Positions 40,433-57,041 of a stretch of 64,000 bases of DNA are shown here, piece after piece. The stretch spans positions 75,780 to 139,779 of the forward strand of contig CAWINE010000013.1 of assembly GCA_963837315.1 (NCBI GenBank), given 5' to 3'. The notes beneath the pieces were generated by a model. That model saw nothing but the letters and a program-made list of their open reading frames with translations. It was not told the DNA's origin and searched no databases. Position 1 is the first letter of the stretch; each line of letters starts with the position of its first letter. Both the position numbers and the translations under genes were made by a program. The stretch comes from an uncultured Chloroflexia bacterium (lineage in GTDB: Bacteria > Chloroflexota > Chloroflexia > QHBQ01 > JADMIH01).

Positions 40433-40440
40433 GAGGAACA

Positions 40441-40719
40441 ATGCAAAAATGGCTCGCTAATATAAGAATCACCCTCAAGCCGGTCGTGAACGACCCGCCT
40501 GGCCTGGCGATACGCGATGGGCTGCACAACCTCGGCTACAGCAGCGTCAATACAGTGCGGGCAGGCAAGTATATCCAGCTTTATCTCACTGCCGACGACC
40601 ACGACGCCGCCGAATTGGTGGTCAACTCCATGTGCCAGCGCCTCCTCGCTAACCCGGTCATCGAAGATTATGCGTTCGACGTGCAGGAAGTAGAGCTGTT
40701 CCCATCTGTAGAAGAATGA
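40441..40719 (+). CDS. purS: phosphoribosylformylglycinamidine synthase subunit PurS
   Basis: 92-aa ORF containing ITLKPVVNDPPGLAIRDGLHNLGYSSVNTVRAGKYIQL. Confidence 0.9.
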   Translation: MQKWLANIRITLKPVVNDPPGLAIRDGLHNLGYSSVNTVRAGKYIQLYLTADDHDAAELVVNSMCQRLLANPVIEDYAFDVQEVELFPSVEE

Positions 40720-40723
40720 AACC

Positions 40724-40873
40724 GATTGCGGATTGCGGATTGCGGATTAGTCTTTACCGCCAAGACGCCAAGATCCGCCAAGGGCCGCCAAGATTTTTAT
40801 TGGTGTAAGCAGTAAGCAGTAAGCAATATCCGCAATTCGTAATCCGCATTCCGCATTCCGCATTCCGCATTCC
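40724..40873. repeat. composite repeat element (copy E)
   Basis: Outer arms are (GATTGCG)3 (40724-40748) and atatccgcaattcgtaatccgcattccgcattccgcattccgcattcc (40826-40873). Inside are a GCCAAGA block (40756-40793) and (GTAAGCA)3 (40805-40825). The element ends 3 nt before the mrp ATG. Confidence 0.9.
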
Positions 40874-40876
40874 CCC

Positions 40877-41671
40877 ATGCCTACCTCAATCCCTAATGTC
40901 CGCCGTATCATAGCCATCGCCAGCGGGAAGGGCGGCGTCGGTAAGACTACTGTGACAGTGAACCTGGCGCTCGCTCTGGCGCTTGACGGGGCGCGTGTTG
41001 GGCTGTTCGACGCCGACGTTTACGGGCCGAACGTGCCGATCATGCTGGGCGTTCGACGCAGCAAACCCGCCAGCGGCACCGCGCCCATTGGCCGCGCCGA
41101 CAACACGCCTTATATCAAGCCGCTGGAGCGATATGGATTGCGCGTGATGTCGATCGGGTTACTGGTGGGCGAGACCGAAGCCGTCATGCCCGACCCGAAC
41201 TATATCGGCCTGCTGGTTTTGCGCACCCTCAAAGACGTGCTGTGGGGCGAGCTTGATTATCTGCTGATAGACCTTCCGCCCGGCACAGGCGAGCCACAGA
41301 GTATGCTGGCAAGGACGGTGCGGATAGACGGCGCGATCGTCGTGACCACCCCGCAGGACCTATCACTGCTGGACGCCGGGCGCTCGCTGGGCCTCTTCCG
41401 CAAAGCAGATGTCCCAATCCTGGGAGTTGTCGAGAACATGAGCTACCTGATCTGCCCCCATTGCGGCGAGAAAATAGAGGTCTTCCACCGCAGCGGCGGC
41501 AAATGGGCCGTCCAGGACGAGGAGCTTGAGCTCCTTGGCCGCATTCCCCTCGACATCGGCATCAGCAAAGGCATAGACGCCGGCCACCCCCTGATCGAAG
41601 CCTCCCCGGACGCGAGAGAAGCGGCGGTATTCAGGGAGATAGCAGGCAAGATTGAGAGGAAGCTGGGTTAA
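40877..41671 (+). CDS. Mrp/NBP35-family ATP-binding Fe-S cluster carrier (ApbC-like)
   Basis: 264-aa ORF with the deviant Walker A IAIASGKGGVGKTTVT and a CPHCGEKIEVF motif. Confidence 0.85.
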   Translation: MPTSIPNVRRIIAIASGKGGVGKTTVTVNLALALALDGARVGLFDADVYGPNVPIMLGVRRSKPASGTAPIGRADNTPYIKPLERYGLRVMSIGLLVGETEAVMPDPNYIGLLVLRTLKDVLWGELDYLLIDLPPGTGEPQSMLARTVRIDGAIVVTTPQDLSLLDAGRSLGLFRKADVPILGVVENMSYLICPHCGEKIEVFHRSGGKWAVQDEELELLGRIPLDIGISKGIDAGHPLIEASPDAREAAVFREIAGKIERKLG

Positions 41672-41684
41672 ATGCGCGGCCGCG

Positions 41685-41900
41685 GTCTGTCATTCTGAGT
41701 GTTATGCCAACTATATTGTTGGAGGAAAGAGGGCCCTCTCTTTTGTCATTCCGAGCTTAGCGAGGAATCACCACGGGGAGTACTGTGCTCGGATCCAAGC
41801 GCCATCTCTCCTGCAGTGATTCCTCGCTGTGCTCGGAATGACAAAGGCAAGGGGCTCTCTTATTCCCAATAAAATAGCCGGCGATGCACTCAGAATGGCA
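41685..41900. repeat. nested palindrome of the GTCATTCCGAG...GAGGAATC family
   Basis: Outer arms are gtctgtcattctgagtg (41685-41701) and cactcagaatggca (41887-41900). Inner arms are tttgtcattccgagcttagcgaggaatcac (41742-41771) and gtgattcctcgctgtgctcggaatgacaaa (41816-41845). Confidence 0.85.
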
Positions 41901-42072
41901 AGGTCATCGTGGCTCACCAGGCACCGGCTTTGCTTCACCCCGCAAGACCCCGGCGCGCTTCGCTCACGAACCTCTGCCCAATATGATAAAATCAGACCAG
42001 GCACACTCAGCACGAGCACGATACAACCATGGTTAAGCAGTAAGCAGTAAGCACCTCCAGGAGAACCCACCA

Positions 42073-42813
42073 ATGAAAGTAGGAGTAGTCGTTTTCCCAG
42101 GCTCGAACGGCGACCATGACGCCATATACGCTATGAGCGAAGTACTTGGGCAGGACGCGGAGATCGTCTGGCACACCGAGACGAGCGTCAGGCGCTACGA
42201 CCTGGTTATCCTGCCGGGCGGCTTTGCTTACGGCGACTACCTGCGAGCGGGAGCAATAGCCCGCTTCACTCCTGCTATGGAGGCGGTCAAACGATACGCC
42301 GAGGCGGGTGGGTGGGTGCTGGGTATCTGTAACGGCTTCCAGGTGCTCGCTGAGGCCCACCTCCTACCGGGGGCGCTGCTAAGGAACTTTGATAGATCAA
42401 CCGGCAATCTCTCCTTCGCATGCCGGTGGGTGCATGTAGCCAAAGAGCAATCACCGTGCGCGCTGCTCGATGGCGTGCCCGAAGGGACCGTCTGGCGGCT
42501 GCCCATCGCGCATGGCGAAGGGCGCTACTACGCCGACCCCGAAACCCTCACCGAGATCGAAGCGAACGGACAGGTCGTCCTGCGCTATTGCACTCCGGAG
42601 GGCTTCACCGATCCATCGGCCAATCCTAACGGCTCGTCGCGGGCCATCGCGGGCGTATGCAACCTGGCAGGCAATGTGCTCGGCCTGATGCCCCACCCCG
42701 AGCGAGCAGCCGAAGCGTTGCTTGGCGGGGACGATGGACGCCTGTTCTTGCAATCGGTGCTGGCCGCATGGACCGCCCACCAGGAAAAAAGGGAGCCGCA
42801 ACTTGCGCGCTAG
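42073..42813 (+). CDS. purQ: phosphoribosylformylglycinamidine synthase glutaminase subunit PurQ
   Basis: 246-aa ORF preceded by the SD aggag. It contains MKVGVVVFPGSNGDHDA, the catalytic GICNGFQVL, and MPHPER. Confidence 0.95.
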   Translation: MKVGVVVFPGSNGDHDAIYAMSEVLGQDAEIVWHTETSVRRYDLVILPGGFAYGDYLRAGAIARFTPAMEAVKRYAEAGGWVLGICNGFQVLAEAHLLPGALLRNFDRSTGNLSFACRWVHVAKEQSPCALLDGVPEGTVWRLPIAHGEGRYYADPETLTEIEANGQVVLRYCTPEGFTDPSANPNGSSRAIAGVCNLAGNVLGLMPHPERAAEALLGGDDGRLFLQSVLAAWTAHQEKREPQLAR

Positions 42814-42940: not shown

Positions 42941-44245
42941 ATGGTGGTGGCCCTGGCCCTGGCCCTTATCGTGGGCTACTTGCTGCTCTGGGCGCAAAAC
43001 GTGCAGGACACGGGCGGCCCGCAGGGCTACATCCGCGGCAACGCCCAGCGCGGCCCCATCGACTTCATCTCCACTCTCACCGGAGCGCAGGTGATACGTA
43101 ATGGCGACGCCGCCCAACTGTACAACCTCGACGTGCAGCGTGACGCCCAAAACAGCATTTTCGACGGCTATCGCCCGCCCCTCGCCACCAGCGAGATCCT
43201 CCCTTACAACCACATGCCGTTCGAGGCGCTCCTTATAGCACCTTTCATGAACCTCCCTTATCCCATTGTGTTCGCCCTCTGGACCCTCCTTTGCGGTGTC
43301 GCTATCGGCATGTCCCTTGGCCTGATGGACGGCGCTTTGCCGGTGGCACGCCCAGTCGGCTGGGTGCTGAGCATGGCGGCCTGCTCTTACTTGCCCCTTA
43401 TACGCGGCCTGATGCTGGGGCAGAACTCGGCCCTCGTGCTACTGGGGCTGTGCGGGCTTTACGTCTCGCTCAAGCGCGGGCAAGATGGCTGGGCCGGTGG
43501 CGCGCTCGTGCTCGTGGCCCTCAAGCCGCAGATATTGCCTGCCGTGCTGCTTTTGCTGGTTTTGGAGCGGCATTGGAGAGCCATTGGCGTCTTCGTGAGC
43601 GTGCTGGCCGGGATGAGCCTGGCAGCCATGCCTCTCCTGGGCATCGGCTGGCCTTTTGACTATATAAAGCTGCTGCTGGGAGTGGCAGGCTGGGGCAGTA
43701 CAGGCGCTATCGACCCAGCCATCATGCACAACTGGCGCGGCTTCTTCACAAACCTGCTGGGTGGCGTGGCGCCTGGGCTCGTGACACCCCTCTTTATTTT
43801 GCTATCGCTCGCGTCGCTTCTGTTACTGGCGTGGGCCTGGTATCGCTCGCGACCGCAGGCTTCGTCCGACTACGAGTACGAAGAAGAGAGCGACCCCGAA
43901 GTCCAGCGCGGCTACCTGCCCCGTCGCGACCTATTGTGGGCGCTCACGGGTATCGCGGCGGTGCTCACTTCTCTCCACCTCAACCCGCACGATCTCACTC
44001 TGCTGGTCTTTCCGGCCTGGATAATCGGGGCCTACGCCACCTCCGGCCTCTGGAGCAAAACTGTCTCGCGTATCTGGCTTGCCGTTCTCGCAGTAGGCTA
44101 TATCCTCGCTCCCCTCACGCTGGCCTACCCTGCCAACGTGGTCATCCCCAGCGTGCTGTTGATGGCTGTTGCCTCGGGCTTACTCGTCTGGCAGCTCGCA
44201 GGCTCTCGCGCTGCGCAAGGGCAGATGGCGGCTGCACCGGCCTGA
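42941..44245 (+). CDS. polytopic membrane protein, GT87/DUF2029-like glycosyltransferase
   Basis: The ORF opens at 42722 but overlaps purQ by 92 nt, so ATG 42941 (MVVALALALIVGYLLLW) is the more plausible start. It has LYNLD...PYNHMPFEALLIAPFMNLPYPIVFALWTLLCGVAIG followed by many TM helices. Confidence 0.55.
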   Translation: MVVALALALIVGYLLLWAQNVQDTGGPQGYIRGNAQRGPIDFISTLTGAQVIRNGDAAQLYNLDVQRDAQNSIFDGYRPPLATSEILPYNHMPFEALLIAPFMNLPYPIVFALWTLLCGVAIGMSLGLMDGALPVARPVGWVLSMAACSYLPLIRGLMLGQNSALVLLGLCGLYVSLKRGQDGWAGGALVLVALKPQILPAVLLLLVLERHWRAIGVFVSVLAGMSLAAMPLLGIGWPFDYIKLLLGVAGWGSTGAIDPAIMHNWRGFFTNLLGGVAPGLVTPLFILLSLASLLLLAWAWYRSRPQASSDYEYEEESDPEVQRGYLPRRDLLWALTGIAAVLTSLHLNPHDLTLLVFPAWIIGAYATSGLWSKTVSRIWLAVLAVGYILAPLTLAYPANVVIPSVLLMAVASGLLVWQLAGSRAAQGQMAAAPA

Positions 44246-44379
44246 CAAATCTGGTCAATCACAGCTTCACCAATGTTATCGAAATAACGGTCGCGAGGTG
44301 GCGTCCGACTTCGTTTCCATTGTTTGCTTGATTGGTATTCTACACCTTGCGAGCATAAATCAAATTGGGGCGATCTCTT

Positions 44380-45864
44380 TCAACCGGCGAGAACCCTGCC
44401 CATTGGCGGTCTCTCCACGGGCCCGAGGGCGCGCACTTCGAACATGCTTGGGGCGGAGTCGCTCCGCGCTGAGACGTGCTTGCCCTCGATCTCTTTTTGC
44501 AGGCGCTCGGCGATCTCGGCAGCACAGCGGCGCATGTCGGGGTCTTGCAGGCGGCGGGCCATGATTTGGAGGATGTCTATGGCGCTTCTGACAGCGGGCG
44601 GCGGCGGGAGGCTCGGCTGGTGATGCTGTAGCTCGACCTGGGCGATGGCGTTGGTGCCGTACTGGGCGGCCACGGAGAGAAGCAGGCCCAGCTCAAGATT
44701 CTCCCCGGCGAACACCGGCATGCCCAGCATTGTGTCGCGCCTGGCGGACAGATCGCGGCTGAAGGGGGCCACCACCGCGGCCAGCGAAGGGCTGAGCACC
44801 TGCAAGAGGGTGCGCGGAGGCAGCATTGCGATCTGCCCCGCCGAAAGGGAGGCAAGGTCGGACGGCTTCAGAGCCTGCACCCGCACCTTCTCAGAGAGAG
44901 CACCTGAATCGCGGTGCGGCACGATAAAGTCTCCCCAGCTCATGTCCGCGACTGCGAAATCTTCGTCCTTACCCTGGTTAGCCGAGCGCGCAATGCCTGA
45001 TGTCTCGGCCTGGCCAAAAGCTTTCACCAATTGGAGCCCCGAATTGCGCAGCAGTGGCCCCGCCAGCGAAAGCGCAGTGCTGGGGTGGAACCGCTTTGCG
45101 CGAGGGTCCAGCCATACAAGGATGTCTCCGCGCATCACCGCAAGGCTCTTCCACCAGCACTCGCCCCGACCATGCAGGTCGCCCTGCGAGGGCACTATCT
45201 CGCTCGCCTGGTATACCTCCACTCCCAGGTCTCGCGCTCTTTCAAGAGTAGTGTCGGTTGAGCCTGCATCCACCACCACTATCTGGTCGGCAATGGGGTG
45301 CATCTCCATCAGCACACGCTTCAGGCCGGTTAGCACCGAATAAATGTGTTTGTCGTCGTTGGAGGTCAGCACCCCAATGCTCAGGGTGAGGCCGCTTGCC
45401 TGCTTGGCTCTCAAGAACTCTTCCGGGTCTTTGAACTCGTCGCCGTGATAAGTATGTTCCACGAACCAGTGCTCGAACGGCATATCGGTCCAATGCTTCC
45501 CGGAGCGCCCGGCCCTCACCTTGCGACTATACCCCGCCAGGTCGATCGAGGCAGGAGTGCTCACAAGGAGCATCGGCGGCCCTTTTACCTGCGACACGCG
45601 CATGGCTACGGAGCTTTCCGCCGGACGGCGGCCGTCATTCAAGCCAATATCGGTCGCCGCTCGCTGCTCGCCACGCGCTACCGGGGAAGGGAGGCCCATG
45701 ATGAGGAGGTCATCAGGGCGGGTCTCGCCCAGCAAAGCCTCTACAGGGTCGGCTTGTCGAGTCAGGATGCTCTCCACCGGCACCGTTACATGCTCGCGCA
45801 TCTGCTGCATCTGCTCGTTGAACACGATATAAGGCTCTTCTCCCAGAGCCTCTACCTGCGTCAA
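44380..45864 (-). CDS. glucosyl-3-phosphoglycerate-synthase-like GT81 glycosyltransferase domain preceded by a C-terminal half of a USP domain
   Basis: TTG-start ORF containing VVVDAGSTDTTLERARDLGVEV, GRGECWWKSL, LQLVKAF, AIAQVEL and GPVERPPM, which parallel known GpgS motifs. The DxD position reads WLDPRA. The N-terminus (VPVESILTRQADPVEALLGETRPDDLLIMGLPS) is the second half of a universal-stress-protein fold. Confidence 0.6.
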   Translation of the reverse strand: MTQVEALGEEPYIVFNEQMQQMREHVTVPVESILTRQADPVEALLGETRPDDLLIMGLPSPVARGEQRAATDIGLNDGRRPAESSVAMRVSQVKGPPMLLVSTPASIDLAGYSRKVRAGRSGKHWTDMPFEHWFVEHTYHGDEFKDPEEFLRAKQASGLTLSIGVLTSNDDKHIYSVLTGLKRVLMEMHPIADQIVVVDAGSTDTTLERARDLGVEVYQASEIVPSQGDLHGRGECWWKSLAVMRGDILVWLDPRAKRFHPSTALSLAGPLLRNSGLQLVKAFGQAETSGIARSANQGKDEDFAVADMSWGDFIVPHRDSGALSEKVRVQALKPSDLASLSAGQIAMLPPRTLLQVLSPSLAAVVAPFSRDLSARRDTMLGMPVFAGENLELGLLLSVAAQYGTNAIAQVELQHHQPSLPPPPAVRSAIDILQIMARRLQDPDMRRCAAEIAERLQKEIEGKHVSARSDSAPSMFEVRALGPVERPPMGRVLAG

Positions 45865-45890
45865 TTGCGGATTGCGCGGATTGCGGATTA
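45862..45890. repeat. single AATCCGC-type arm at the junction of the two ORFs
   Basis: The plus-strand sequence is caattgcggattgcgcggattgcggattatt. It supplies the TAA that ends ORF 45888..46661 and the TTG that starts ORF 44380..45864. Confidence 0.85.
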
Positions 45891-46661
45891 TTCCGGGTCA
45901 TCGCCGGCCGGGAACTGGTCGTCTGTCGCCCGTCCTTCGTCCGTGCTCGCCGGCACATTATGCATCACCGCTACAGGAAGCCTCATGCGCTCGGCGAGCG
46001 ACATGCCTACTTGCAGCGCGTGCTCTGCCGCTGGACCGCCACGCACCGGTAGGAAGACGCGCCTGCTTTTCCGCCAGCCTTCCAGGCGAGCGAGAATAAC
46101 GTTGCAAGGGGGGTTCTTGAGAGCAGCGTCGGTGATGCGCCCGTATAGGTGGCGCTTCGGCTCGCGTGCGTAGCCTTTCCAGTAGAGAAGCATCGTGTCT
46201 GCACGCTCGTCACGAGCCGCCTGGTGTATGGCCCCCGCTACGTCGCGCGCCACTTTCACCACCCGGTCCACTCGCGCCCTCCGGCCTTCCAACTCCACCT
46301 CGGAAGGCAAGAAGTCGAGCAATGCGCGATACGAGCGCGCCATATCGAGGCCCATCGTCAGAGGCTCGTCCGGCGGCACCTCCACCACGCTCAGGACGAC
46401 GATGCGCGGAAGGCGTTCCAATTGCGGATTGCGGATTGCGGATTGTGGATTGACGGGGTATCGCCGGTCGTCGGTCATCAGTTCATGAATGGACAGGGGA
46501 CTGTCGCCGCTTGTTGGTCCCACCAGCATCCCTGCAAGCTGAAGTATCTCCGCCGCGTGGCCCGTGTTTAGCATGGGCACCAGTACAACGGTAGGTGCCA
46601 GATCCGACAATATTGAATTACCGGCTGCGGAGAGCAGCCCGTCTTTGAGCATACTATTCAT
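45888..46661 (-). CDS. tandem universal-stress-protein-like domains (probably the N-terminal part of one gene with 44380..45864)
   Basis: 257-aa ORF with USP-like beta-alpha units (VVLVPMLNTGHAAEILQLAGML; RIVVLSVVEVPPDE...ADTMLLYWKGY; VFLPVRGGPAAEHALQVGMSLAERMRLPVAVMHNV). The third unit is truncated at the repeat. It contains the in-frame repeat peptide VNPQSAIRNPQLE. Confidence 0.6.
   Translation of the reverse strand: MNSMLKDGLLSAAGNSILSDLAPTVVLVPMLNTGHAAEILQLAGMLVGPTSGDSPLSIHELMTDDRRYPVNPQSAIRNPQLERLPRIVVLSVVEVPPDEPLTMGLDMARSYRALLDFLPSEVELEGRRARVDRVVKVARDVAGAIHQAARDERADTMLLYWKGYAREPKRHLYGRITDAALKNPPCNVILARLEGWRKSRRVFLPVRGGPAAEHALQVGMSLAERMRLPVAVMHNVPASTDEGRATDDQFPAGDDPE
46420..46452. repeat. 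single (GATTGCG)n arm inside the USP-like CDS
   Basis: aattgcggattgcggattgcggattgtggattg is translated in frame on the minus strand as NPQSAIRNPQ. Confidence 0.85.
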
Positions 46662-46695
46662 AAGTTCGCAAGTCCTCGCCGTTGAGCACCTGCCC

Positions 46696-46803
46696 GAATG
46701 CGGAATGTGGAATTCGGAATGCGGAATATCGATTATTGTTTACTGCTTGTCACGTTTTACATGCGTCGTTATTCCGCATTCCAAATTCCGAATTCATCAT
46801 TCC
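46696..46803. repeat. GCGGAAT-type hairpin element
   Basis: The left arm gaatgcggaatgtggaattcggaatgcggaat (46696-46727) is identical over 32 nt to 59550-59581. The right arm is tattccgcattccaaattccgaattcatcattcc (46770-46803), and it overlaps the vWA stop codon. Confidence 0.9.
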
Positions 46804-48135
46804 TTAAGTCTCGCCGTCTCTGCAGCCGACAGTTTGCGAGTCTCAAAGGTTAGCTTCTTGGTAGCCGCGGCACTTACATGCCCTTCGGATTCGATCTTCT
46901 GGGCCTCTTTTTCCGCCGCCTCGGCAAGATCGGTCTCACCGAGGTTCAAAAGGCGAGTGGCCGCTGCGCGCAGATTGCGCGTCGCCCCCTCCACATCGCC
47001 TACCATACTGGCTTGTAACGCTCTTGTTTGCAACTTGAACGTGGTCGCTTTCTCCACACTGTTCATCACCCTTGGATTGCCCGGGCCTGTGCCTGCTCCG
47101 GTGGCAAAGCCTACAACCAGGTCGATGGCGGTGTCACCTTTGGTCTGGCCGGGGTCTGATGTTTCATATTCAAGCATAAGGTGGGCCAGGCGATAGCTGC
47201 CCGGCTTCCGAGCCGGTATCACTATCTCGTAAAGAAGCGTCTGCCCGTCAGCCGACTGGATGTCGCCCAGAGGCAGGGTGAGGGAAGTGGCCGCGCCGCT
47301 CGTCTGGGGCTGCGCGACGGCTTCCGTCTGGCCGGGCCCCGCGGGCTCGACGCTGGGCCAAAGCCTGGATATAACCGGCGCAACCCTGTACACTGTGCGA
47401 GCCGCTACCCCGCCGGTAGGCGTGAAGGTAAGGCGCAGAGTTGCGCGCGGTGGTTGCCTGCATAGCTCGTAAAGTCTTCTCGAAGGTGCCGGCTATCTCG
47501 TCAGGATTGGCGATATAATCAACGTTGCCGCCGCTCTCGCTCGCGATTGCGTCCAGCAACTCGATGCTCCAGTCCTCTTCAGCGCCCACACCTAGAGCGG
47601 TCACAGGTATGCCCGCTGCACCGGCCTGGGCCGCAAGCTCGATGCACTGCTGTCCGTCGCCCCATGTCTGCCCATCGGTAAGCACTACGATGCGCGATAC
47701 GACCCCCTGCCCCTGCGCCTTCATCGCTTCGCTCAAGCCGACGGCCAGCCCCTTACTCATCGCGGTGCCGCCTGCCTCTTTTATGGCCTCGACCTGGCCG
47801 AGCAGAGCCCGGGGATCGTCCGCTTTCGTGCTCGGCACCAGAGGGTGCACGTCGTCGTCGAAAAGGGTGATAGCAATCGTATCTTGCGGGCTGAGATGGT
47901 CGACAACCCAGGCCACGGCCTTCTTCAAGTTTTGTAGCTTCGCCCCGCCCATCGAGCCGGACCTGTCCAGCACCAGACTGAGGTTAAGTGGCTGCGCCCC
48001 ACCGGAGGACGCCGGCGGCGGCACGGGCGCATCTTGCTGCGTTATGTCAAGCAATAGATAGGCGAGACTTGTCTGCTCGCCCGCAGGAAGAGGGTCGTGA
48101 TTCCAGGTAGCCTTAAGAGTGATGTTCGCGGTCAT
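46797..48135 (-). CDS. von Willebrand factor A (vWA) domain protein, one apparent frameshift
   Basis: ORF 47248..48135(-) has the MIDAS motif LVLDRSGSMGG, then GGTAMSKGL and VVLTDGQTWGD. After ...MQATTARN the frame degenerates. ORF 46797..47393(-) continues in another frame as TLRLTFTPTGGVAARTVYRVAPVIS..., with the junction near 47425-47440. Confidence 0.75.
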
Positions 48136-48240
48136 GAGCTTCCTCTAATAAAACGTAAGGCTGAGCACTAACGTTACACGACAATATATACGTAACTTTC
48201 CCCATTAAAGTATCACTCATTACGTTTTACGCGTCACGCC

Positions 48241-50454
48241 CTAAGTCGCCCCGGCCATCACTCGCGTGAGCACCACGCTTATGTTATCTTCGCCGCCGTT
48301 GGCGTTGGCCTGGTCTATAAGGGCCTGGCTGATGGTCTGGGGGTCGGTGGGAGAGGCCAGTATAGATGCGATGCTGGGATCGCGCACGAAATCCCACAAT
48401 CCGTCCGAACAGAGGAGCAGGCCATCCCCCGGTCTAAGCCGCTGGCTGTAGACGTCTATCTCGTCTTCGGTGAGGCGCGAATTGCCCAGGGCGCGGTAGA
48501 TTTCGTTGCGACGCGGGTGCGTGTAAATGTCATCGGGCTTGATTTGCCCCGCCATCACAAGCTGCATTACCAGCGAGTGATCGCGCGTGAGGACCTGCAA
48601 AGTATTGTCGTGCCAGATATAGGCCCGGCTATCGCCCACGTTTGCAACCGTCAACTGGTTGCCTATGAGGAGCGCAACCACCGTGGTGGTGCCCAGATCC
48701 GAGTGCCGCTCACGAGCCAGATCGGTGATACGCCGGTTGGCTTCGAGCACCGCTTGCTGCAACAGATGGCCGCAGGTATTGGCGTCGCGGGCCACAGGGT
48801 CGCCCGATACGAGCGGACCCAGCAGCGAGGAGTTCACCACAGCCCCTATCGTGCGGATCGCGATAGACGAAGCCACCTCGCCGCTCTGGTGCCCTCCCAT
48901 GCCATCCGCGATCACGTACAGGGCCACCGGAAGATTGCCTTCGTGCTCCAGTACTGTGGCTTCGAAGGTGAGCACGCTGTCTTCGTTTATCTTGCGCACC
49001 CTGCCCACATCGGAGGCTCGCCCGCTCCAGAGCTTAAGGTTGGTGAGGGGCTTGCTCGCCTCGTAGAGATCGCGCAATACCTCGGCGAAGGCATGTGCGG
49101 TAGGGTAAGAGCCTTCTCGCGCTCGCGCCAGTGCCACAGCCGGGTTCATGTCGCGGCCCAACGGTCCCGTCACTTCGTAGGCCGCCACCATCGGCATTGG
49201 CGAGATTGCGACCCCCGAACGCTCCTTAGATACAGGGCCAGGCTCACCTTCCTCGGGAGCGACCTCTTTGCGTACGGCCATGTACCAGCGCTCCAGCTCC
49301 GATGCCAGGGCCCGCACATCCGAAAGCTCGGCTGAGTCTCGCTCTTGCATGCTCAGGTTATCTGTCACGCTGCAACCCGAAGGATCGAGCAGCAGCACGC
49401 GGTCACCCGGCTGCACAAGCAAATTGGCAAGCTCCAGCGCGCAACCGGCTATACTCTCGTCGTGAAGCCGCGCCAGCAAATCAGCAGCCTGCACCATCCA
49501 GGCAAGGGTCTGCTCTTCTTCAGGTTCTAGCGGTACTGCGAGGTGGCCCGACTGGCTCGCCAGCAATTCGTCCGTTACCGTGGACCCCGGCAGCCAGGAG
49601 GCCAGAGTTCGCCCTGATGCTTCCTCCCAGGCCACGTAAATCCGTCCCGTTTGCTCGTCCACCCAAACATCATAGACATGCGCCACGCCCATCACCCGGT
49701 TCTCGAGGATCGCAGGAGCGATCTTGATTGCGGATTGCGGATTGCGGATTGCGGATTGCGAGGACGAAGGTGCATTGCCGATTGCGGATTGCTCAGGAGT
49801 GAGAGCCGGGTACTGAGGATTGAGTGCGGTTTCTTCTACTCCGGCGGCCACTCCCTCGGCTACCATCTCCGGCCCACCCCCACCGTTCGCTATGAGTCCG
49901 TTGCCTGCCGCCGGTACGCCGTCGTCGGTGGTCGATCGTCCGTCGTCCGCCGGCAGATTATACTCTTGCAGCCTGTAGAAGCGTCCCGCCAGTTGCGCGC
50001 CGCATTCCACGCAGTAAATATCGCCGGGCATGGAGCTATCTGAGCCGCAGGCCCAGCAGCGGCGATAGCCTTGCAGGTCGGTCACGCGGTACATATTGGT
50101 ATCGCGCACAACGCCGAGAAAAGCCGCCACCTGGTAGCGCTCGTTCAGCACGGTGTGTTCAGCAAGAGGAGGTGAGGGCGGCCCGCCATTCTCAGGCAAG
50201 GGGGTAGTATTCTTGCCGCGTGTCGTGCCAATGGTGCCAAGCGGCTCGGTGATGATGTTATCCGGCGAGACTGCTACTGCCTCGACTTCGGATTTGGCTG
50301 CAGGCTGTTCGGCCTGTGCGGCATCTTGCGCCTGTGCTGGTGTGTCGCCGGGTGGCGGCTCAGGAGATAGTTCAGACGGTTGAGGGGGTTGAGGAGGTGG
50401 CTGAGGCTGTGTCTCTTCCTCGCTGGTGGGGCCGGCTGCCGGATCTATATTCAT
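48241..50454 (-). CDS. PP2C Ser/Thr phosphatase fused to an N-terminal Zn-ribbon-containing kinase-like (pseudokinase) domain
   Basis: ORF 48241..50577(-). The likely start is ATG 50454 (MNIDPAAGPTSEE), and the upstream codons translate hairpin 50483-50579. The C-terminal PP2C domain has GRVRKINEDS, YVIADGMGGHQSGEVAS, VANVGDSRAY, LLLCSDGLWD and GGEDNISVVL. The N-terminal part has LNERYQVAAFLG, the Zn ribbon CWACGS...CVECG, and a kinase-like C-lobe whose catalytic loop reads GCALELANLL and whose DFG position reads DPS. Confidence 0.8.
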   Translation of the reverse strand: MNIDPAAGPTSEEETQPQPPPQPPQPSELSPEPPPGDTPAQAQDAAQAEQPAAKSEVEAVAVSPDNIITEPLGTIGTTRGKNTTPLPENGGPPSPPLAEHTVLNERYQVAAFLGVVRDTNMYRVTDLQGYRRCWACGSDSSMPGDIYCVECGAQLAGRFYRLQEYNLPADDGRSTTDDGVPAAGNGLIANGGGGPEMVAEGVAAGVEETALNPQYPALTPEQSAIGNAPSSSQSAIRNPQSAIKIAPAILENRVMGVAHVYDVWVDEQTGRIYVAWEEASGRTLASWLPGSTVTDELLASQSGHLAVPLEPEEEQTLAWMVQAADLLARLHDESIAGCALELANLLVQPGDRVLLLDPSGCSVTDNLSMQERDSAELSDVRALASELERWYMAVRKEVAPEEGEPGPVSKERSGVAISPMPMVAAYEVTGPLGRDMNPAVALARAREGSYPTAHAFAEVLRDLYEASKPLTNLKLWSGRASDVGRVRKINEDSVLTFEATVLEHEGNLPVALYVIADGMGGHQSGEVASSIAIRTIGAVVNSSLLGPLVSGDPVARDANTCGHLLQQAVLEANRRITDLARERHSDLGTTTVVALLIGNQLTVANVGDSRAYIWHDNTLQVLTRDHSLVMQLVMAGQIKPDDIYTHPRRNEIYRALGNSRLTEDEIDVYSQRLRPGDGLLLCSDGLWDFVRDPSIASILASPTDPQTISQALIDQANANGGEDNISVVLTRVMAGAT
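49726..49792. repeat. (GATTGCG)5 + (GATTGCG)2 direct blocks inside the PP2C gene
   Basis: gattgcggattgcggattgcggattgcggattgcg (49726-49760) and gattgcggattgc (49780-49792) are translated in frame as EQSAIGNAPSSSQSAIRNPQSAIKIAP. Confidence 0.85.
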
Positions 50455-50482
50455 ATAGCCATAAACCTCGTCAGGCCCGTCT

Positions 50483-50579
50483 GAATGCGGAATACGGAAT
50501 GTGGAATGCGGAATACATAGGTTGTCGGTTGTGGGTCGCCCAGCGGCATTCCGCATTCCACATTCCACATTCCACATTC
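50483..50579. repeat. GCGGAAT/GTGGAAT-type hairpin in the divergent promoter region
   Basis: Left arm gaatgcggaatacggaatgtggaatgcggaata (50483-50515) faces right arm cattccgcattccacattccacattccacattc (50547-50579). The loop contains ggttgtcggttgtggg. Confidence 0.9.
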
Positions 50580-50739
50580 AGTGGGGCCATAAGATAGGCT
50601 AATGATAGCACAAGGGGTAGGGAGGCGCAAACGTCTTTCGATAGGTAATACGTACTAATCAACCCACAAGATTTATATGATCTTAATACCTCTTCATCAT
50701 CAGGCTCGGTTATAATAGGGCAAGCAAAGGGAAACTCCC

Positions 50740-52722
50740 ATGGCACATTCGGACGAGCCCATATCCGTCATTGAAGACCTGGACCCGGAGCCGTCTCCCA
50801 GGCGTGGCGGGCGGCAAGTGTGGGAGGTTGTGCTTGGGGTGCTTTTGCTGGCAGGGGTGCTCGGCTATGTCGGTTGGCAGTGGGCCCGGCAGGAAGCCCA
50901 GCAGCGTACCTACGATGCGGGCAGCGACGCTGCGACCCGGCGTGACTGGGACCAGGCACACACCCTCTTTGCAGCAGCATCCGGCTACCTTGACGCCGAC
51001 ACACAAGCAAAGGCAGCCGCCACCACTATCGCAAAGCGCGATGACCTGTATAAAACCGCCCTTGATAATGAGAACGCGGGCAATTGGATGGCCGGCCTCA
51101 AATCCATCCGGCAGGTAGACGATATCCAGCCGGGCTACAAAGACTCTGCCCAGATCGAGGAACTGACCACCGGCAAGATATATGGGCAAGTGTTGAGCGG
51201 CACCGTAGCCCTCCGCGCCGGTGCCACCCCGCCCGGTCTTTACTACTACGGCCCTGACGGCTGGGGGTGGCTGCCTAACAGCGACCTTTACAGCAGAGTA
51301 GAGGGTAGCGGCTCCGGCAACTGGCTGGTGTACGATGTGCCCGGTGAAGGCTGGACACCGGCGCTCACCCCCACTCCACCAGGCCCTGACATCTGGTCGC
51401 CCCAACTGCAGGGCCGCCGCCTACTGGCAGCACGCCTGCCAGATCTCTCCCAAACAATTGCTATCTCCATACCCATCAACCCAAAGCCATATTACCTGTT
51501 TCAATGGGGTAAATACGGACTTTGGGCGACAACCTATGATCCACAGCCAACTCAGTACCCGCCATCAGGCCCAATCCGCCGGCCACTATTCGGGTCGGAG
51601 CAGACAACCGTAACGTATCAAAGCTTCAACGGCTCTATCACCTCACCCACCCAAGTTGAGAATGCGAAAGACAAGGCCATTATTATGGGACTCGACCCCA
51701 ACAGCAATCGCTTTCTGCTGGCTACCTGGTCCGGCGAGGATAGCGATGGCGGGGTCATCGCCGGCACGGTTACCAACCTATACCTGGTGCGCCCCGGCAG
51801 CGACCGCCGGTTACTCTACTCTGTGACAGGCGGCAGTTTCATCTCGGCGCAGTTCAGCCCGGATGGAGTGCACGCTCTGCTCAGCACTTACACTATTCTC
51901 GACGCCGAAAATGAGGAGCGGTCTGTGATCCTCCTTTCTCTCGACGGCACAGCATCACCACAAACAATCGCTGAGACAACAGCCCACATAAACACTCGAT
52001 CTCCTCAGTGCTGTGATAGTTCGCCCGACACCGTTGATAACTCGTTTACCGCATCATTCATAGACGGCGGATCGTACTCAGGCGACATTATAGTGGCAGA
52101 ATATGACCAGGGGCACAACTACCTGCGCCTGATTGACACCCACTGGGGAGCAGCTCAAGTGATTATGATGGAAGTCCCTACTAACAAGCGGCTCAACTGG
52201 TCGATTTTCGAAGGGCAGAACGGGGAGGCGGTGCTGGTTGCCCTGCAGGAACCTTTCATGGAAAACCTCCGCCAGTCGCAACCTTTCATCCAACCGATGC
52301 CCATCACATTCGTTGTCCTGTCGCCTGACGAAGGGCTCAAAGTAACCAGCCTGGTGGTTGACTGGGACCCCTATCGCACCGAGCTTGACTTTGCCACCGT
52401 CGCCGGCAATCAGCTTGTTTTCAATACGTCTACATGTTGTAGCAAGCAGAATAGTAGGTCCGTCTTCTCCTTTCCGACCTCTCGCTTTGGCGTCCAGGGA
52501 GAACAACCTGCGACCACGTACAACGAGACCGGCGCAGCCTCAAGCGATGATCCCCTTAGCTACGGCAGCCAGAGTTTCGGTTCGAGTTTTTTCGCTGATA
52601 TATCGGCAGGCGATCTGCACGCTCGTTACTACGACGACTCGATTGACGTTGTGCTGGAGCACAATGTTGCTTACCTGTACAACACGTCAGAGAATTTTCT
52701 CTGGCAGAGCTCGCTTCGCTAA
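50740..52722 (+). CDS. membrane-anchored protein of unknown function, tandem family member 1 (intact)
   Basis: 660-aa ORF with TATAAT at 50711-50716 upstream. It has a conserved cytoplasmic tail (SVIEDLDPEPSPRR), a TM helix (WEVVLGVLLLAGVLGYVGW), AASGYLDADTQAKAA, GLYYYGPDGWGWLP and an FSPDG-containing propeller-like region, and it ends LEHNVAYLYNTSENFLWQSSLR. Confidence 0.7.
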   Translation: MAHSDEPISVIEDLDPEPSPRRGGRQVWEVVLGVLLLAGVLGYVGWQWARQEAQQRTYDAGSDAATRRDWDQAHTLFAAASGYLDADTQAKAAATTIAKRDDLYKTALDNENAGNWMAGLKSIRQVDDIQPGYKDSAQIEELTTGKIYGQVLSGTVALRAGATPPGLYYYGPDGWGWLPNSDLYSRVEGSGSGNWLVYDVPGEGWTPALTPTPPGPDIWSPQLQGRRLLAARLPDLSQTIAISIPINPKPYYLFQWGKYGLWATTYDPQPTQYPPSGPIRRPLFGSEQTTVTYQSFNGSITSPTQVENAKDKAIIMGLDPNSNRFLLATWSGEDSDGGVIAGTVTNLYLVRPGSDRRLLYSVTGGSFISAQFSPDGVHALLSTYTILDAENEERSVILLSLDGTASPQTIAETTAHINTRSPQCCDSSPDTVDNSFTASFIDGGSYSGDIIVAEYDQGHNYLRLIDTHWGAAQVIMMEVPTNKRLNWSIFEGQNGEAVLVALQEPFMENLRQSQPFIQPMPITFVVLSPDEGLKVTSLVVDWDPYRTELDFATVAGNQLVFNTSTCCSKQNSRSVFSFPTSRFGVQGEQPATTYNETGAASSDDPLSYGSQSFGSSFFADISAGDLHARYYDDSIDVVLEHNVAYLYNTSENFLWQSSLR

Positions 52723-52735
52723 GGAGATTGTTCCG

Positions 52736-54676
52736 ATGCAAAACTCCGATGAGACAATGTCCGTTATAGAAGATCTGGACCCTGAGCCGCCGCCAAAGCG
52801 AAGCGCCCGCACCTGGGAAGTCATCGTGGGCATGGTGCTGCTTGTAGCCGTCCTCGGCTTCGCCGGGTGGGAATGGGTCCACCAGAACCAGCAGCAGAAC
52901 AACTATAGAGAGGGCACTGATGCCATGCGGCCCGTCAGGACTGGGATGTCAGCGCAAGCCCACTTCGCTGCAGCTTCAGGCTATCTCGACGCAGATAAAC
53001 AAGCACAAGCAGTCGCCACTAAGATCACCCAGCGCGATGACCAGTATAGAATTGCAACCTCAAGGTCGAACTCTGGTGATTGGATCGCCTGTTTGAAAGC
53101 TATACAACAGGTCGAGGCCATCGAGCCGGGTTACAAGGACTTGGCTCAAATAGAGAAGAAAGCAACAGGTCAGATTTATCGTGGGGCGATGAGTGGCACC
53201 GTCGCACTCCGCCTCGATGCCAACCCATCAGGCCTGTATTATTACGGAGCGAACGGTTGGGTATGGTTGCCAAAGAGCGACCGCTACAGCAAGGTTCAAG
53301 GCGCTGGCGTTTCTGACTGGCTACTATATGACGTACCTGGCCCTGAGTGGGTTCAACCAGCGCCGCCAACTCCAACAACATCAAGCTCTCAATTAACATC
53401 ACCACAGCTAGCCAAGCGACTTCTTACGGCTGCTAAGATGCCTGATCTCTCTAAAACCGTTACTTTGTCTATTGATCCTGAGCAGTACTATTATTTTGGC
53501 TGGGGCGAAAACGGGCTTTGGGGGTTTCATGACGCTGGAGTGCATGAGAACTACCAGTCACCACTTGGGGTATCATATTGGCCCAGTAGCACGGTAACCT
53601 ATCAGAGCTATAACAGCCCCGCCACATCAACGGTCCAGTTAAAATAGCATCAGCAAAAAGACGATGATCATGGACCTGGACCCGAATGGCGATGACTACC
53701 TTATGGCAACATGGTCAGGAGACAAGCAAGGCATTGTCATCACAAACACCATTACGACCCTATATCTGGTAAGGCCCAGTGACGGGGCCAGCCCACAACT
53801 ACTCTATACGATTACGGGAGGCAGCTTCGCCTCAGCGGAATTCAGCCCCGATGGCCTCCATGCGCTGCTCAGGACTTACTCCTATACCTTTGGTATAAGT
53901 GATTATGCCACAGAGAAACAGACGATGCTGCTGCTTTCCCTGGATGGGACTTCTCCACCACGAACAATTGGAGAATGCAACAGTCGCTGTGGAAAAGTTA
54001 AGAATTGCTCACAACGCCTATCAAGTCAGGGCATCATTTATTAGCGGAGGGCCATACTCAGGTAACATACTGATAGCCGAATTCGACGGAGACCACTATA
54101 ACGTGAGCATGGTAGACACGCAGCGGGGCACGCCAATAATGGGCCTGGAAGTCCCTGGAGACAAGTTCCTCTTCTGGTCGCAGTTTCAGGGGCACAATGG
54201 AGAAAATGTACTAGTCGGTCAGGATGATGACTACAGCGATTTCACTTCTGTTGGCCAAAATCGCCCCGACTTCGATAGTATTCGTCGTCTTCTCACCAAA
54301 CTTGACGCCTAAAGTAACTACCCTAGTGATTGACGAGGACCGCTACGGTGCTGCATTGGGCAATGCAACTATTATCGGCAATCAGTTGGTCTTCAGCATC
54401 TACGCGAACAATATCAGGTCTATTTATTCCTTTCCAATCGATCGCCTGGGTTCTCAGGGAGAGAAACCTAAATCAGTAAGCATAATTGGCCTATCAAGTG
54501 AGAAAGTATACGCAGACAACACCCAAGCATTTGGGCCCGATCTTTTCGCGAACTTGTCCGGGGGAGATCTTGAAGTAAGGCCCTACGATATATCGGTTGG
54601 TTTCCCGCTGGAGCACAATGTGACATACCTTTACGACACCTCACAGAAGGCATCCTGGCAAACCGCACTCCATTAA
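52736..54676 (+). pseudogene. tandem family member 2, at least five frame changes
   Basis: SD aaggag lies at 52721-52726 and the ATG at 52736 (MQNSDETMSVIEDLDPEPPPKR). Homology to member 1 moves through ORFs 52358..53647, 53664..54044, 53899..54312 and 54224..54676 (start mod 3 = 2 -> 0 -> 1 -> 2), with an additional compensating pair near 52925-52965. It ends LEHNVTYLYDTSQKASWQTALH. Confidence 0.65.
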
Positions 54677-54694
54677 ACAAAAGAGAATTAGCAT

Positions 54695-56719
54695 ATGTCA
54701 GTATTCCAACGAGCCAATATCTATTATCGAAGATCTGGACCCTGAGCCGCCGCCAAAGCGAAGCGCTCGCGAACCTGGGAGGTTATTGCGGGCCTCCTGC
54801 TTCTGGTAGCCGTGCTTGGCTTTGCCAGCTGGGAATGGGTTCACCAGACCCGCCTTCAGAACGAGTACGGCGCGGGCACCGATGCCATCGCACGCCAGGA
54901 TTGGGAGTTGGCGGAGGCCGATTTCCAGGCGGCCTCGGGCTATCTCGACGCCGACAAGCAAGCCCAGCAGGCGGTCGACAATATCGCCACGCGCAACGAA
55001 CAGTACGAAGCCGCGGTGGCTGCCGAGAAACTGAGCGATTGGCCCGCGACACTGAAGGCTATCCAGCAGGTCACCCGGATACAATCGAGCTATAAAGATG
55101 CCGTCCAGATTTAGCAGAAGGCAAGCGGCCAGGTCTACAGTGACGCCCTGAGCGGCACTATCGCCCTGCGCACGAGCGCTAACCCACCCGGCCTCTATTA
55201 TTACGCTCAACGCGGCTGGACCTGGCTCCCGAAGAGCGACCAGGGCAGCCAGGTCAGGGGCCAGAGCGCTAACGGCTGGATTGTGTACGATATACCGGGC
55301 GAGGTTGCGGCCTCTGCCGCGCAGCCAACGCAAACCCCGGCGCAAAACGGCAGGCCGGCTCCGCCTACCCTGGCAGGACGCCGCTTGATGGCGATGCCCC
55401 TTGGTGGCCCCGGCCCCGACAAAGCCGCAGAGCTGGCTCTCGATCCCGGCCAGTATAACTCGTTCCAGGCGGTAAATGGGGGCGTGTGGGCGCTGCGCGG
55501 CGGATTTCGCTACGGAGGGAATAACTTCTCCGGTGGGTTCGGCGGGCAGCGGCGTTCGGGACCGGGCTCATTCGCTTTCGGAGCTACGCCGCTCCCTGCG
55601 GCGGGAGCAATATACGAAAGCTATACAAGCGTCCTCACCACCGGTGTAAAGCTGCCCGCCGGCAGGAGCGAGCAGAATAGCGTTGCCACTATCCTCGCCT
55701 TCGACTTAAGCAGTAACAGCTACATCCTGGCAGACTCGCCCCAAACGAACGCCGCGCCCGGCTCCGCTGTCACCGGAACAACTACCCTTTACCTGGGACA
55801 GGCTGGAGGAGATTTGCAAACGCTTTACGGCCAGCCCGACCGTAACATTAGCTCCGCGCAATTCAGCCCTGACGGGACCTATATCATCGCGCACTCGTAC
55901 AGCGTTTCAACGAAGGCGGAGTTGATTTTGCTCTTCAGCCTTCAAAGTAACGCCTCACCGCGTGTACTGGAAGAATTGACAGGGCAGTTGATCGTGAACC
56001 CTCCCGGCAGCCAACCTTCGAACCCAAACGGCAGGCGCGCCTTCAACTTCGCCGGTTACGGGCTTTCTGCCGCATTCCTGCAGGATGGACCGTTCGCCGG
56101 GAAAATCGTCATATCAAGCTACGAGGGCCAACAAACCGACCTGAAGGTAATCGACCCCAGGGATCCCGCCGAGGCACTCGTAGATCTGCAAGCGCCTGGC
56201 AGCAACAGGATTCCCTGGACGATCGACCCCGGCAATAGTCAGATGTCACTGATTTCCGGCCAGGAAATGGCCCCCGGTGGGGTCCAGGCTCTGGAGACGC
56301 TGTGGGTCGTAGCCCTGGTGCCTGGCAAGCAATCGACCATAACCGCGCTCGCCCTCCCCGCAAATAACTTTGCCGATTTGGCTATGGTCGCAGGCGACCA
56401 CCTATCGTTCAGTGCGTACACTCGCGCTCAAAACCGCGGGGAGACACGCTCCGTCCTCTCCTTCCCGACGAGCGGCCTCGGAGCCGCCGGGCAACGAGAC
56501 CCAACTATGTCCGCGCAGTTGGGCTCAACGAGCGGTAACGGCTTCGGCTTTTTCAACCTGGGCGACTACAGCTACGGTCCAACGCTCTTCGCTTACCTCT
56601 CGGGTACCGACCTCCACGCAAGCCTCTACAACGGCGCAGTTGATGTGGCCCTCGAGCCCCACGTAAGCTACCTCTATAACCCTGCTCTGCATCAGATGGC
56701 AAATAATCAGCTTCGGTGA
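54695..56719 (+). pseudogene. tandem family member 3, two N-terminal frame changes and an in-frame TAG
   Basis: ATG 54695 is out of frame with SNEPISIIEDLDPEPPPKRSAR, and the frame returns at TWEVIAGLLLLVAVLGFASW. TAG at 55112-55114 replaces the Glu of the conserved AQIE(E/K) position. The frame then stays open to 56719 (ORF 55283..56719) and ends LEPHVSYLYNPALHQMANNQLR. Confidence 0.6.
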
Positions 56720-56929: not shown

Positions 56930-57041
56930 TATCGGTAATCACCGATTAGATAATAATTGACATCCCCACACCCATGAGGTATAGTTACTGAACACACAAT
57001 GCAGTGTGCTCTATCACGCTTCTCAAGACTACGAGAAAATC

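Follow-up and report, generated by a model that had tools for sequence, protein, structure and literature searches.

A stretch of 64,000 nucleotides from an uncultured Chloroflexia bacterium (assembly GCA_963837315.1, contig CAWINE010000013.1, positions 75,780 to 139,779; hereafter the window) carries three genes in a row on its minus strand, the first encoding a zinc-ribbon pseudokinase fused to a PP2C phosphatase, the second a von Willebrand factor A (vWA) protein, and the third a protein that joins Usp and GT81-like domains. We read these genes, with a probability of about 0.6, as a cytoplasmic Ser/Thr phospho-signalling operon of the kind built from vWA, kinase, phosphatase, and docking-domain proteins, with the fusion and the vWA gene as its two-gene core. 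It looks like an undescribed bacterial version of the archaeal Arn phospho-switch. An earlier sequence-only reading of the window had pointed out a vWA protein whose MIDAS (metal ion-dependent adhesion site) reads DRSGSMGG and, next to it on the same strand, the fusion protein of 737 amino acids (aa); both are present where it placed them, and its general idea of a phospho-signalling module made of vWA, PP2C, and kinase-type proteins is supported here. The three genes are the following:

48241..50454, minus strand: fusion gene, 737 aa, with a disordered P/Q/E-rich N-terminus, the Zn-ribbon pseudokinase, and PP2C
46797..48135, minus strand: vWA gene of the ArnB/YfbK type, about 445 aa if read through, with a 1-nt insertion near 47439
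44380..46661, minus strand: Usp and GT81-like gene, open reading frames (ORFs) 45888-46661 and 44380-45864, with the frame broken between them

The length of 737 aa follows from the ATG picked in the sequence-only reading; the frame is open as far as 50577, and the alternative upstream start at that position falls within a repeat-built hairpin. Within the fusion protein, the following features were located:

49048..50151, minus strand: protein-kinase-like (pseudokinase) domain, from AlphaFold2, Foldseek, profile, and hhalign results
49990..50064, minus strand: CxxC-x11-CxxC zinc ribbon, an insertion that separates β2 from β3 in the N-lobe
49717..49956, minus strand: variable disordered linker after β3, with a predicted local distance difference test score (pLDDT) below 50, absent or short in homologues
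49372..49464, minus strand: degenerate catalytic loop and DFG region, reading LH..I-G-C-A-L-E-L-A-N ... D-P-S-G-C
48256..49026, minus strand: PP2C (PPM) phosphatase domain, which keeps every metal-binding motif

Searched as a single sequence with Pfam, NCBIfam, and PADLOC and, by phmmer, in the PDB, the N-terminal half gave no kinase match; in Pfam, the PP2C and VWA models found their domains in the window, but Pkinase (PF00069) did not match the window protein. The kinase fold emerged from structure prediction and from family-level comparison. An AlphaFold2 model of residues 94-484, built on an alignment of 27 sequences, has 193 residues with pLDDT ≥90 (above 90 in the ordered parts) and a predicted template modelling (TM) score of 0.72. 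When this model was compared with the PDB by Foldseek, the matches were protein kinases only, led by Stk1 of S. aureus (3.6e-8) and then PknB, Src, and FGFR, with target-normalised TM scores of 0.5-0.62 and at least 1793 matches at E ≤ 1e-3. Searching PDB sequences with the family profile of the N-terminal domain likewise put kinases first (E 0.004-0.01). Finally, hhalign against the PknB kinase domain, which served purely as an alignment target, paired HQNGIIHRDVKPANIM...VMDFG with HDESIAGCALELANLL...LLDPS, so that HRDVKPAN falls on GCALELAN and DFG on DPS. Thus, the N-terminal half has, as modelled, the bilobal Hanks-type kinase fold that the sequence-only reading had guessed from its first residues, and the readings it gave for the HRD/K and DFG positions (GCALELANLL and DPS) agree exactly with the alignment.

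The catalytic machinery of this fold is degraded. Residue counts in the alignment of 27 sequences were as follows:

HRD-His column: G in 23 of 27
HRD-Arg column: C (C245) in 26 of 27
HRD-Asp column: N in 12, D in 4, R in 3, P in 3, A in 2, others in 3
Catalytic-loop Asn (N251) column: kept in 26 of 27
DFG-Asp (D264) column: kept in 25 of 27
β3 columns: no Lys; R65 in 27 of 27, R68 in 26 of 27

Nor are the Gly-rich loop and the αC Glu conserved; the αG region is disordered, and there is no activation loop or APE motif. With HRD reading G-C-x and DFG reading D-P-S, the domain is a pseudokinase by the usual definition, and the prediction that the kinase is catalytically dead holds for HRD, the VAIK Lys, the Gly loop, and the αC Glu. 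The CxxC...CxxC ribbon, which had been placed inside the N-lobe from the letters alone, lies in the model between strands 26-33 and 66-73. Its cysteines C40, C43, C55, and C58 (fragment numbering) are found in 25, 25, 26, and 27 of the 27 sequences; the remaining entries are gaps in N-terminally truncated sequences, which means that Cys stands in every sequence covering these columns. A weak Pfam Zn_ribbon_3 match also falls on the ribbon. The linker after β3 is clade-specific, and a heptamer array within it (49726-49760, GATTGCG x5) encodes SAIRNPQSAI.

We consider it very unlikely that the N-terminal domain is an atypical active kinase, in which case one protein would combine kinase and phosphatase activity, setting the mark on its vWA partner as well as removing it. 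The metal ligands (the catalytic-loop Asn and the DFG Asp) are indeed kept, and R65 and R68 of β3 could stand in for the VAIK Lys, but the Gly-rich loop and the αC Glu are lost, and with them the activation loop, the APE motif, and an ordered αG region. Asp at the HRD position in 4 of 27 sequences and the HRD retained in the distant relative P0244 are set against a catalytic-base column that varies from Asn to Arg, Pro, and Ala, and against the missing Pfam Pkinase match. Moreover, many relatives encode a separate canonical Hanks kinase in the same cluster, which speaks for another protein as the writer.

The description of the C-terminal half as canonical PP2C in the sequence-only reading was correct. 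Pfam PF00481 matches it with 64.9 bits (gathering score 20.3; E 1.2e-17), and the NCBIfam Stp1/IreP model gives 227.2 bits, narrowly under the equivalog cut-off of 230, so the domain is related to that family and is not filed as its equivalog. Compared with tPphA (2j82; 7e-35), residues D18, D34, D119, D193, D231, and R13 are conserved, and the motifs RxxNED, DGMGG, GDSR, SDGL, and DN are all kept. The C-terminal half is a complete canonical PP2C, for which the intact site predicts phosphatase activity.

The fusion architecture is more than a chance event, because the protein has 47 close homologues, all from Chloroflexia or Chloroflexota metagenome-assembled genomes (MAGs) and all with PP2C, and when its profile was searched exhaustively, 575 representative proteins came up at E ≤ 1e-3 (87 at E ≤ 1e-10). 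A C-terminal PP2C was present in 9 of the 10 relatives scanned, and several relatives carry extra N-terminal modules, either a further Zn ribbon or TIR and TPR. Distant members give sub-threshold matches to the Pkinase, PknB, or LanL/LanKC kinase models (for Pkinase, 26.8 bits in P0253 and 24.2 bits in the fusion of locus L053, against a threshold of 31.7), and a few retain HRD (P0244) or DF (P0253). Judged by these residues, the family would fit descent from an active kinase into which the ribbon was inserted. Some relatives also match NCBIfam PRK14559 upstream of PP2C (model positions of about 257-370). This 642-aa cyanobacterial model, named 'serine/threonine phosphatase', is matched by the window protein in its PP2C part only (108.9 bits against a cut-off of 374), and its likeness to the relatives suggests that the same long architecture is present there. 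The cyanobacterial branch thus already has a model, under a phosphatase name alone that is silent on the kinase-like domain.

The sequence-only reading had not recognised the arrangement as characterised, which stands in one respect and not in another: no description of a bacterial pseudokinase-PP2C fusion was found in the literature searched, but the fusion is a broad family rather than a rare oddity, and sources already label it, merely as 'PP2C phosphatase'. The relative P0186 (709 aa, on an 844-kb contig) has TIR and TPR before the Zn-ribbon N-lobe motif and then PP2C, with the profile match covering only the Zn-ribbon N-lobe part of the kinase-like domain. Its domain content hints that one branch may have been recruited to a conflict or defence role.

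The second gene of the core encodes a vWA protein with these features:

47953..47967, minus strand: MIDAS DxSxS motif (DRSGS), read from the sequence and invariant in alignments A4 and A5
46803..47075, minus strand: C-terminal four-helix bundle, AlphaFold2 helices 107-130, 134-150, 154-170, and 175-197

ORF 47248-48135 matches Pfam VWA at 1.3e-20, and its MIDAS is complete, since DRSGS is joined by the conserved T of GGTAMS and the D of LTDGQ. The AlphaFold2 model of the C-terminal 198 aa, of moderate confidence (pLDDT 72.5), has β-strands first and then four helices. The best Foldseek matches of this fragment, which starts at the frameshift and so holds an incomplete β-sandwich, were the ArnAB complex (8s05_B) and 4fx5, both weak (E ~0.03). 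Profiles gave clearer results: the full-length family profile matched 4fx5, a Catenulispora vWA protein, at 1.2e-15 and ArnB (8s05_A) at 1.1e-10, and the C-terminal profile matched 4fx5 at 1.1e-8, ArnB at 1.3e-8, and ArnE at 3e-5, with a second collinear stretch against ArnB over the sandwich and helices that is not significant alone. The family's JGI name is 'Ca-activated chloride channel family protein', which we take to be the label of YfbK-type orthologues. Thus, by profile comparison and by the model, the vWA protein has the predicted ArnB/YfbK architecture of vWA, β-sandwich, and C-terminal four-helix bundle. Within the bundle, T344, T367, S395, and T406 (A5 numbering) are conserved, and these Thr/Ser residues could be the basis for a phosphorylation that controls partner binding.

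The two core genes are conserved as neighbours. A survey anchored on the fusion covered 22 GTDB species representatives; the fusion is followed by the vWA gene in 20 of 21 informative species loci, and the vWA gene by the Usp-GT gene in about 18 of 20. The order of fusion, vWA, and Usp-GT recurs, with a sigma-70 gene added, in more divergent members, although one of them lacks the vWA gene, and still more distant fusions adjoin one to three copies of the same vWA family (A4 profile 1e-94 to 1e-132). When the survey was instead anchored on the vWA protein and covered the best 80 of 482 relatives, a fusion ORF stood directly upstream of vWA in 19 of the 30 closest loci, among them loci of Herpetosiphon giganteus DSM 589, Roseiflexus, Chloroflexus, Anaerolineae, Ktedonobacterales, and one Deltaproteobacteria MAG. 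In the other 50 loci, with more distant YfbK-like vWA genes, the fusion was never directly upstream. According to Pfam, several lineages place a Zn-ribbon+FHA gene directly after vWA and a Pkinase-TPR or ZnR-Pkinase gene upstream, and one distant locus reads PP2C, Pkinase-TPR, fusion, vWA, and double-Zn-ribbon+FHA. The fusion and vWA pair is therefore widespread in Chloroflexota, often with genes for an active Hanks kinase and for an ArnA-like Zn-ribbon-FHA protein beside it.

Two observations on related loci belong here. Firstly, a five-part cluster of PP2C, Pkinase-TPR, ZnR-pseudokinase-PP2C, ArnB-like vWA, and double-Zn-ribbon+FHA genes was seen at L034 (3984-11198), L058 (1936-7892), L040, L053, and L054, and in it bacteria have a look-alike of the entire Sulfolobus Arn set. 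Secondly, in L007, L008, and L009 a sigma-70 family gene, 66-73% identical among these loci and absent from the window, lies directly 3' of Usp-GT, which suggests a transcriptional output in the divergent lineages.

The third gene, whose conserved place in the operon the sequence-only reading had missed, encodes one or more N-terminal Usp domains (Pfam) and a GT81 (GpgS/MpgS)-like domain. The latter is a homologous GT-A domain, as seen from its matches to MpgS 3f1y (5.4e-33) and GpgS 4y6n (8e-26), and the NCBIfam GpgS model (PRK13915) reaches 1.9e-47 with 161.8 bits against a cut-off of 262. In the operon-linked family (44380-45864 and the homologues P0049-P0094 and L007-L009), DxD has become DPR or DPK, PxLNEE has become TSNDxx, and the metal-binding His is lost, whereas all three are kept in bona fide GpgS/MpgS and in a separate Usp-GT group. 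Because the glycosyltransferase site is degenerate in these residues, the protein is probably a ligand-binding pseudo-glycosyltransferase that acts as a sensor rather than as an enzyme. JGI annotates this degenerate family as 'glucosyl-3-phosphoglycerate synthase'.

The closest characterised analogue is the archaellum-regulatory switch of Sulfolobus acidocaldarius, made of ArnA, ArnB, ArnC (ArnD), and PP2A (PDB 8s05, 5a8j). Researchers have found that ArnB joins a vWA domain to a split β-sandwich and to a helical bundle with a regulatory role, and have named 4fx5 and E. coli YfbK as bacterial proteins of this architecture; that the CxxC…CxxC zinc finger of ArnA docks on the sandwich and bundle of ArnB, with the ArnA FHA domain binding phospho-Thr in the bundle; and that ArnC (TPR and kinase) writes the mark which PP2A erases (Watad et al. 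2026, PMC12852372). The two systems share a MIDAS vWA protein with β-sandwich and C-terminal helical bundle, with ArnB and ArnE among its best PDB relatives, a partner with a CxxC…CxxC zinc ribbon, and control by Ser/Thr phosphorylation and dephosphorylation, which in the present system would follow from the predicted domains. In addition, TPR-kinase, vWA, and Zn-ribbon+FHA genes are all present in related bacterial loci. Nevertheless, the differences are considerable. The present system is bacterial, has no archaellum, and has as its eraser an operon-encoded PP2C of the PPM family, where Arn uses PP2A of the PPP family. The ribbon sits here inside the phosphatase-fused pseudokinase and in Arn on the FHA protein; the window lacks an FHA or kinase gene and has an extra Usp-GT81-like partner, and Pfam detected no ArnB_C signature.

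Starting from the domain identities, the kinase fold with its lost catalytic residues, the intact PP2C site, the ArnB-like architecture, and the conserved linkage, we propose the following scheme, in which the question of who phosphorylates what, the docking by the Zn ribbon, and the role of Usp-GT are modelled on known systems. The vWA protein would serve as a scaffold of the ArnB/YfbK type, with its MIDAS vWA domain, β-sandwich, and four-helix bundle, and the bundle would be phosphorylated on Thr/Ser by a Hanks kinase, which is encoded next door in many Chloroflexota and would be encoded elsewhere in the present genome. The PP2C of the fusion protein would be the eraser that resets the switch. 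The kinase-derived half, with the Zn ribbon in its N-lobe, would have no phosphotransfer role; pseudokinase and ribbon together would form a docking module that brings PP2C to its vWA substrate, by analogy with the ArnA zinc finger on ArnB. In this Chloroflexia clade, the nucleotide-binding Usp and GT81-like protein would be the output or input partner.

A bolder version of this scheme can be put forward tentatively, and we hold it to be possible rather than probable. The Zn-ribbon pseudokinase would then be a substrate-recognition module recruited as a targeting subunit of PP2C, docking at the site on the vWA protein that the cognate Hanks kinase also uses, so that writer and eraser compete. 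Together with Usp and the pseudo-glycosyltransferase, this would make a ligand-sensing stress switch built largely of pseudoenzymes, one that Chloroflexota as a whole would have conserved and that would stand in evolutionary continuity with the archaeal Arn system and with the Sec23/24-type core of zinc finger, vWA, sandwich, and helices.

Several findings weigh against the phospho-signalling operon that we favour. There is no Hanks kinase or FHA gene within the 64-kb window. The conserved catalytic-loop Asn, the DFG Asp, and the two β3 Arg residues may reflect nucleotide or metal binding or an atypical activity. The likeness of the helical bundle to ArnB is weak in the fold search, and the second HMMER stretch over it lacks significance alone; when intact homologues of the vWA gene were scanned with Pfam at E ≤ 5 to look for a signature of the ArnB_C type, only vWA models came up. 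Finally, the vWA and Usp-GT genes are both frameshifted in this assembly, and the module may thus be inactive in this organism.

The frameshifts deserve a closer description. The vWA gene consists of two overlapping ORFs, 47248-48135 and 46797-47393, whereas in every relative its homologue is a single ORF of 412-462 aa. Translation across the junction and comparison with four intact homologues (...ATTARN / LRLTFTPTGGV...) located one surplus base at about 47439, between AAC 47442-47440 and CTG 47438-47436, and this site is not a homopolymer. Relatives of the Usp-GT gene have one ORF of 630-790 aa; in the window, the frame break (45865-45895) coincides with an array of degenerate AATCCGC heptamers. 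Gain or loss of copies of a 7-nt unit would shift the frame of Usp-GT, and this could represent repeat-mediated inactivation, phase variation, or an assembly error at the repeat. Elsewhere in the same window, RelA is without an in-frame N-terminus (57006-57431), and a PQQ-repeat/SLH gene (7828-10960) is probably split into two ORFs. So many frameshifts across one 64-kb window point to an indel-prone assembly or to unusual gene decay. The broken halves are still highly similar to the intact homologues, which favours indel errors in the assembly, and this is where we lean, no further than that.

The alternative is that the module is a decaying remnant in this organism, with vWA and Usp-GT as true pseudogenes and the phosphatase fusion as the sole survivor, and we regard this as unlikely. 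It draws on the break at about 47439 lying outside any homopolymer, on the break at about 45865-45890 lying in a heptamer repeat able to expand or contract, and on the similar state of two of three paralogous genes (paralogs 2 and 3 of the array described below); but both halves of each broken gene are 60-90% identical to intact homologues and contain no more stops, and the frameshifts in RelA and probably in the PQQ/SLH gene suggest assembly indels rather than selective decay. A promoter and terminator scan of 44200-50900 gave counts not above those of shuffled sequence, and an Rfam scan of the whole window gave no match.

The sequence-only reading had described the module as condensed and TerY-P-triad-like. 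It would then belong to the system of TerY (vWA), PP2C, and kinase that has been tied to stress from tellurite or metals and to defence against phages. According to the summary in PMC10542128, TerY-P (Anantharaman, Iyer and Aravind 2012) has an active kinase, fused at its C-terminus to a Zn ribbon or OB fold, and the context comprises ter genes, restriction or defence systems, with a defence variant in Gao 2020. Measured against that summary, the likeness lies in the co-occurrence of vWA and PP2C with a kinase fold that bears a Zn ribbon, together with a predicted phosphorylation switch, and the unlikeness in three separate genes, a short TerY-type vWA, and a ter or defence context, none of which is found here. 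All three domain types and the Zn ribbon are thus present in the window, but the kinase is dead, is fused to PP2C, and has its ribbon inserted between β2 and β3 instead of at the C-terminus, and the vWA protein is of the YfbK/ArnB type with β-sandwich and helical bundle at about 445 aa. The surroundings are housekeeping genes (pur genes, RelA, LGT) in clade-wide synteny, without ter genes or nucleases. PADLOC, which presumably includes the TerY-P system, gave no vWA match and just a weak PDC-M21C match on PP2C. We regard this assignment as highly improbable, and TerY-P membership was rejected on the type of the vWA, the dead kinase with its inserted ribbon, and the non-defence context.

Other systems resemble the phospho-signalling operon in part. 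The Deinococcus radiodurans operon DRA0331-DRA0334 encodes vWA, a Ser/Thr protein kinase, FHA, and FHA-PP2C proteins (bioRxiv 10.64898/2026.01.23.701218). Compared by description, it shares a vWA protein and a PP2C with an N-terminal docking domain, which there gives substrate specificity; its docking domain is a KI-FHA and not a pseudokinase, and an active kinase and an FHA protein are part of the operon. Similarly, vWA, kinase, PP2C, and FHA occur together in the threonine-phosphorylation pathway PpkA/PppA/Fha1 of the type VI secretion system, where the vWA of PpkA is fused to the kinase. Composite proteins of PP2C and kinase in Pseudomonas and Deinococcus (Krupa and Srinivasan 2005, PMC1262709) also hold both folds in a single polypeptide, but there PP2C precedes an active kinase, and here a dead kinase precedes PP2C. 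Seven bacterial pseudokinase families have been curated (ActPs1-3, GLW, CP1, DYD, and DLHK; PMC12599244), which share the Hanks-type fold with degraded catalytic motifs; the comparison is by description, and a text search of that review found no mention of PP2C, zinc, vWA, Chloroflexi, or a phosphatase-fused member.

The family is of interest because it escapes the Pfam kinase model and yet is widespread in Chloroflexota and locked to one vWA family, and its carriers include the cultivable Herpetosiphon, Roseiflexus, and Chloroflexus. Experimental work on bacterial pseudokinases has hardly begun, and the fusion would offer a tractable case of a dead kinase that targets a phosphatase. It would also give the Sulfolobus ArnA/ArnB switch a counterpart in bacteria and would connect systems that have been described separately, namely TerY-P, the type VI secretion threonine-phosphorylation pathway, the Deinococcus DRA0331-0334 operon, and Arn. 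Three database labels, the sole names of these proteins at present, would be corrected as well: 'PP2C phosphatase', 'Ca-activated chloride channel homologue', and 'glucosyl-3-phosphoglycerate synthase'.

Divergently from the module runs an array of three paralogous genes for membrane-anchored proteins, delimited by tblastn of paralog 1 against the window:

50740..56716, plus strand: divergent three-paralog array
50740-52722, plus strand: paralog 1, intact
52736-54673, plus strand: paralog 2, with at least three frameshifts (about 53659, about 53975-54031, about 54219-54260)
54702-56716, plus strand: paralog 3, with one frameshift at about 54773

By inspection, the paralog protein has a short N-terminal tail, a single hydrophobic helix, and a large C-terminal region, and the family has no Pfam, NCBIfam, or PADLOC match. 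These genes had been named as candidate substrates or partners of the module; they are weak candidates, only loosely linked to it, and were rejected as a partner conserved in general. The neighbourhood survey confirmed the link of fusion and vWA, including in distant relatives, but a homologue of the paralogs lies divergently upstream of the fusion in only 9 of the 22 species. All nine belong to the clade that shares the RelA/LGT flank. The linkage of the array has the look of synteny passed down by descent, and not of a functional link in its own right.

The wider neighbourhood is of a housekeeping kind and syntenic in the clade. Purine-biosynthesis genes surround the module (purF-like, purL, a purB-like lyase, purC, purS, and purQ at 13927-18577, 30333-31496, and 39211-42813), past the array come RelA/SpoT (57347-59551) and LGT (60061-61098), whose order is shared with related MAGs, and GT87 is also present. 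We found no defence island here, no ter genes or nucleases nearby, and no adjacent defence genes at the related loci. On the minus strand at 22943-25827, an ORF with adenylate/guanylate cyclase and NB-ARC (24271-25827) is immediately followed by a TPR ORF (22943-24250), and these look like one STAND-type signalling protein, possibly split.

The window is also rich in short repeats. Heptanucleotide tandem arrays of 4-5 copies occur at more than 25 sites (GAATGCG/CATTCCG, GATTGCG/TCCGCAA, ACTGACA, GTTGTCA, CGTTTTA, and others), for example at 50483-50579, 46696-46770, 49726-49760, 46421-46452, 21896-22002, 62117-62199, and 62948-63067. They resemble the short tandemly repeated repetitive (STRR) sequences of cyanobacteria. 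Where complementary arrays adjoin, very stable intergenic hairpins arise, such as those at 50470-50590 (36-bp stem, -74 kcal/mol, z -10) and at 46685-46800 (-41 kcal/mol, z -5.1), and some arrays lie in coding linkers, where they encode repeats of the SAIRNPQ type. A second class has units of 8-10 nt (ACGCCAAG, CACGAAGGT/CACGAAGAA, and complements), and these arrays recur together in intergenic regions at 3498-3584, 11732-11851, 21189-21418, 40199-40364, and 40757-40794, like a composite repeated element.

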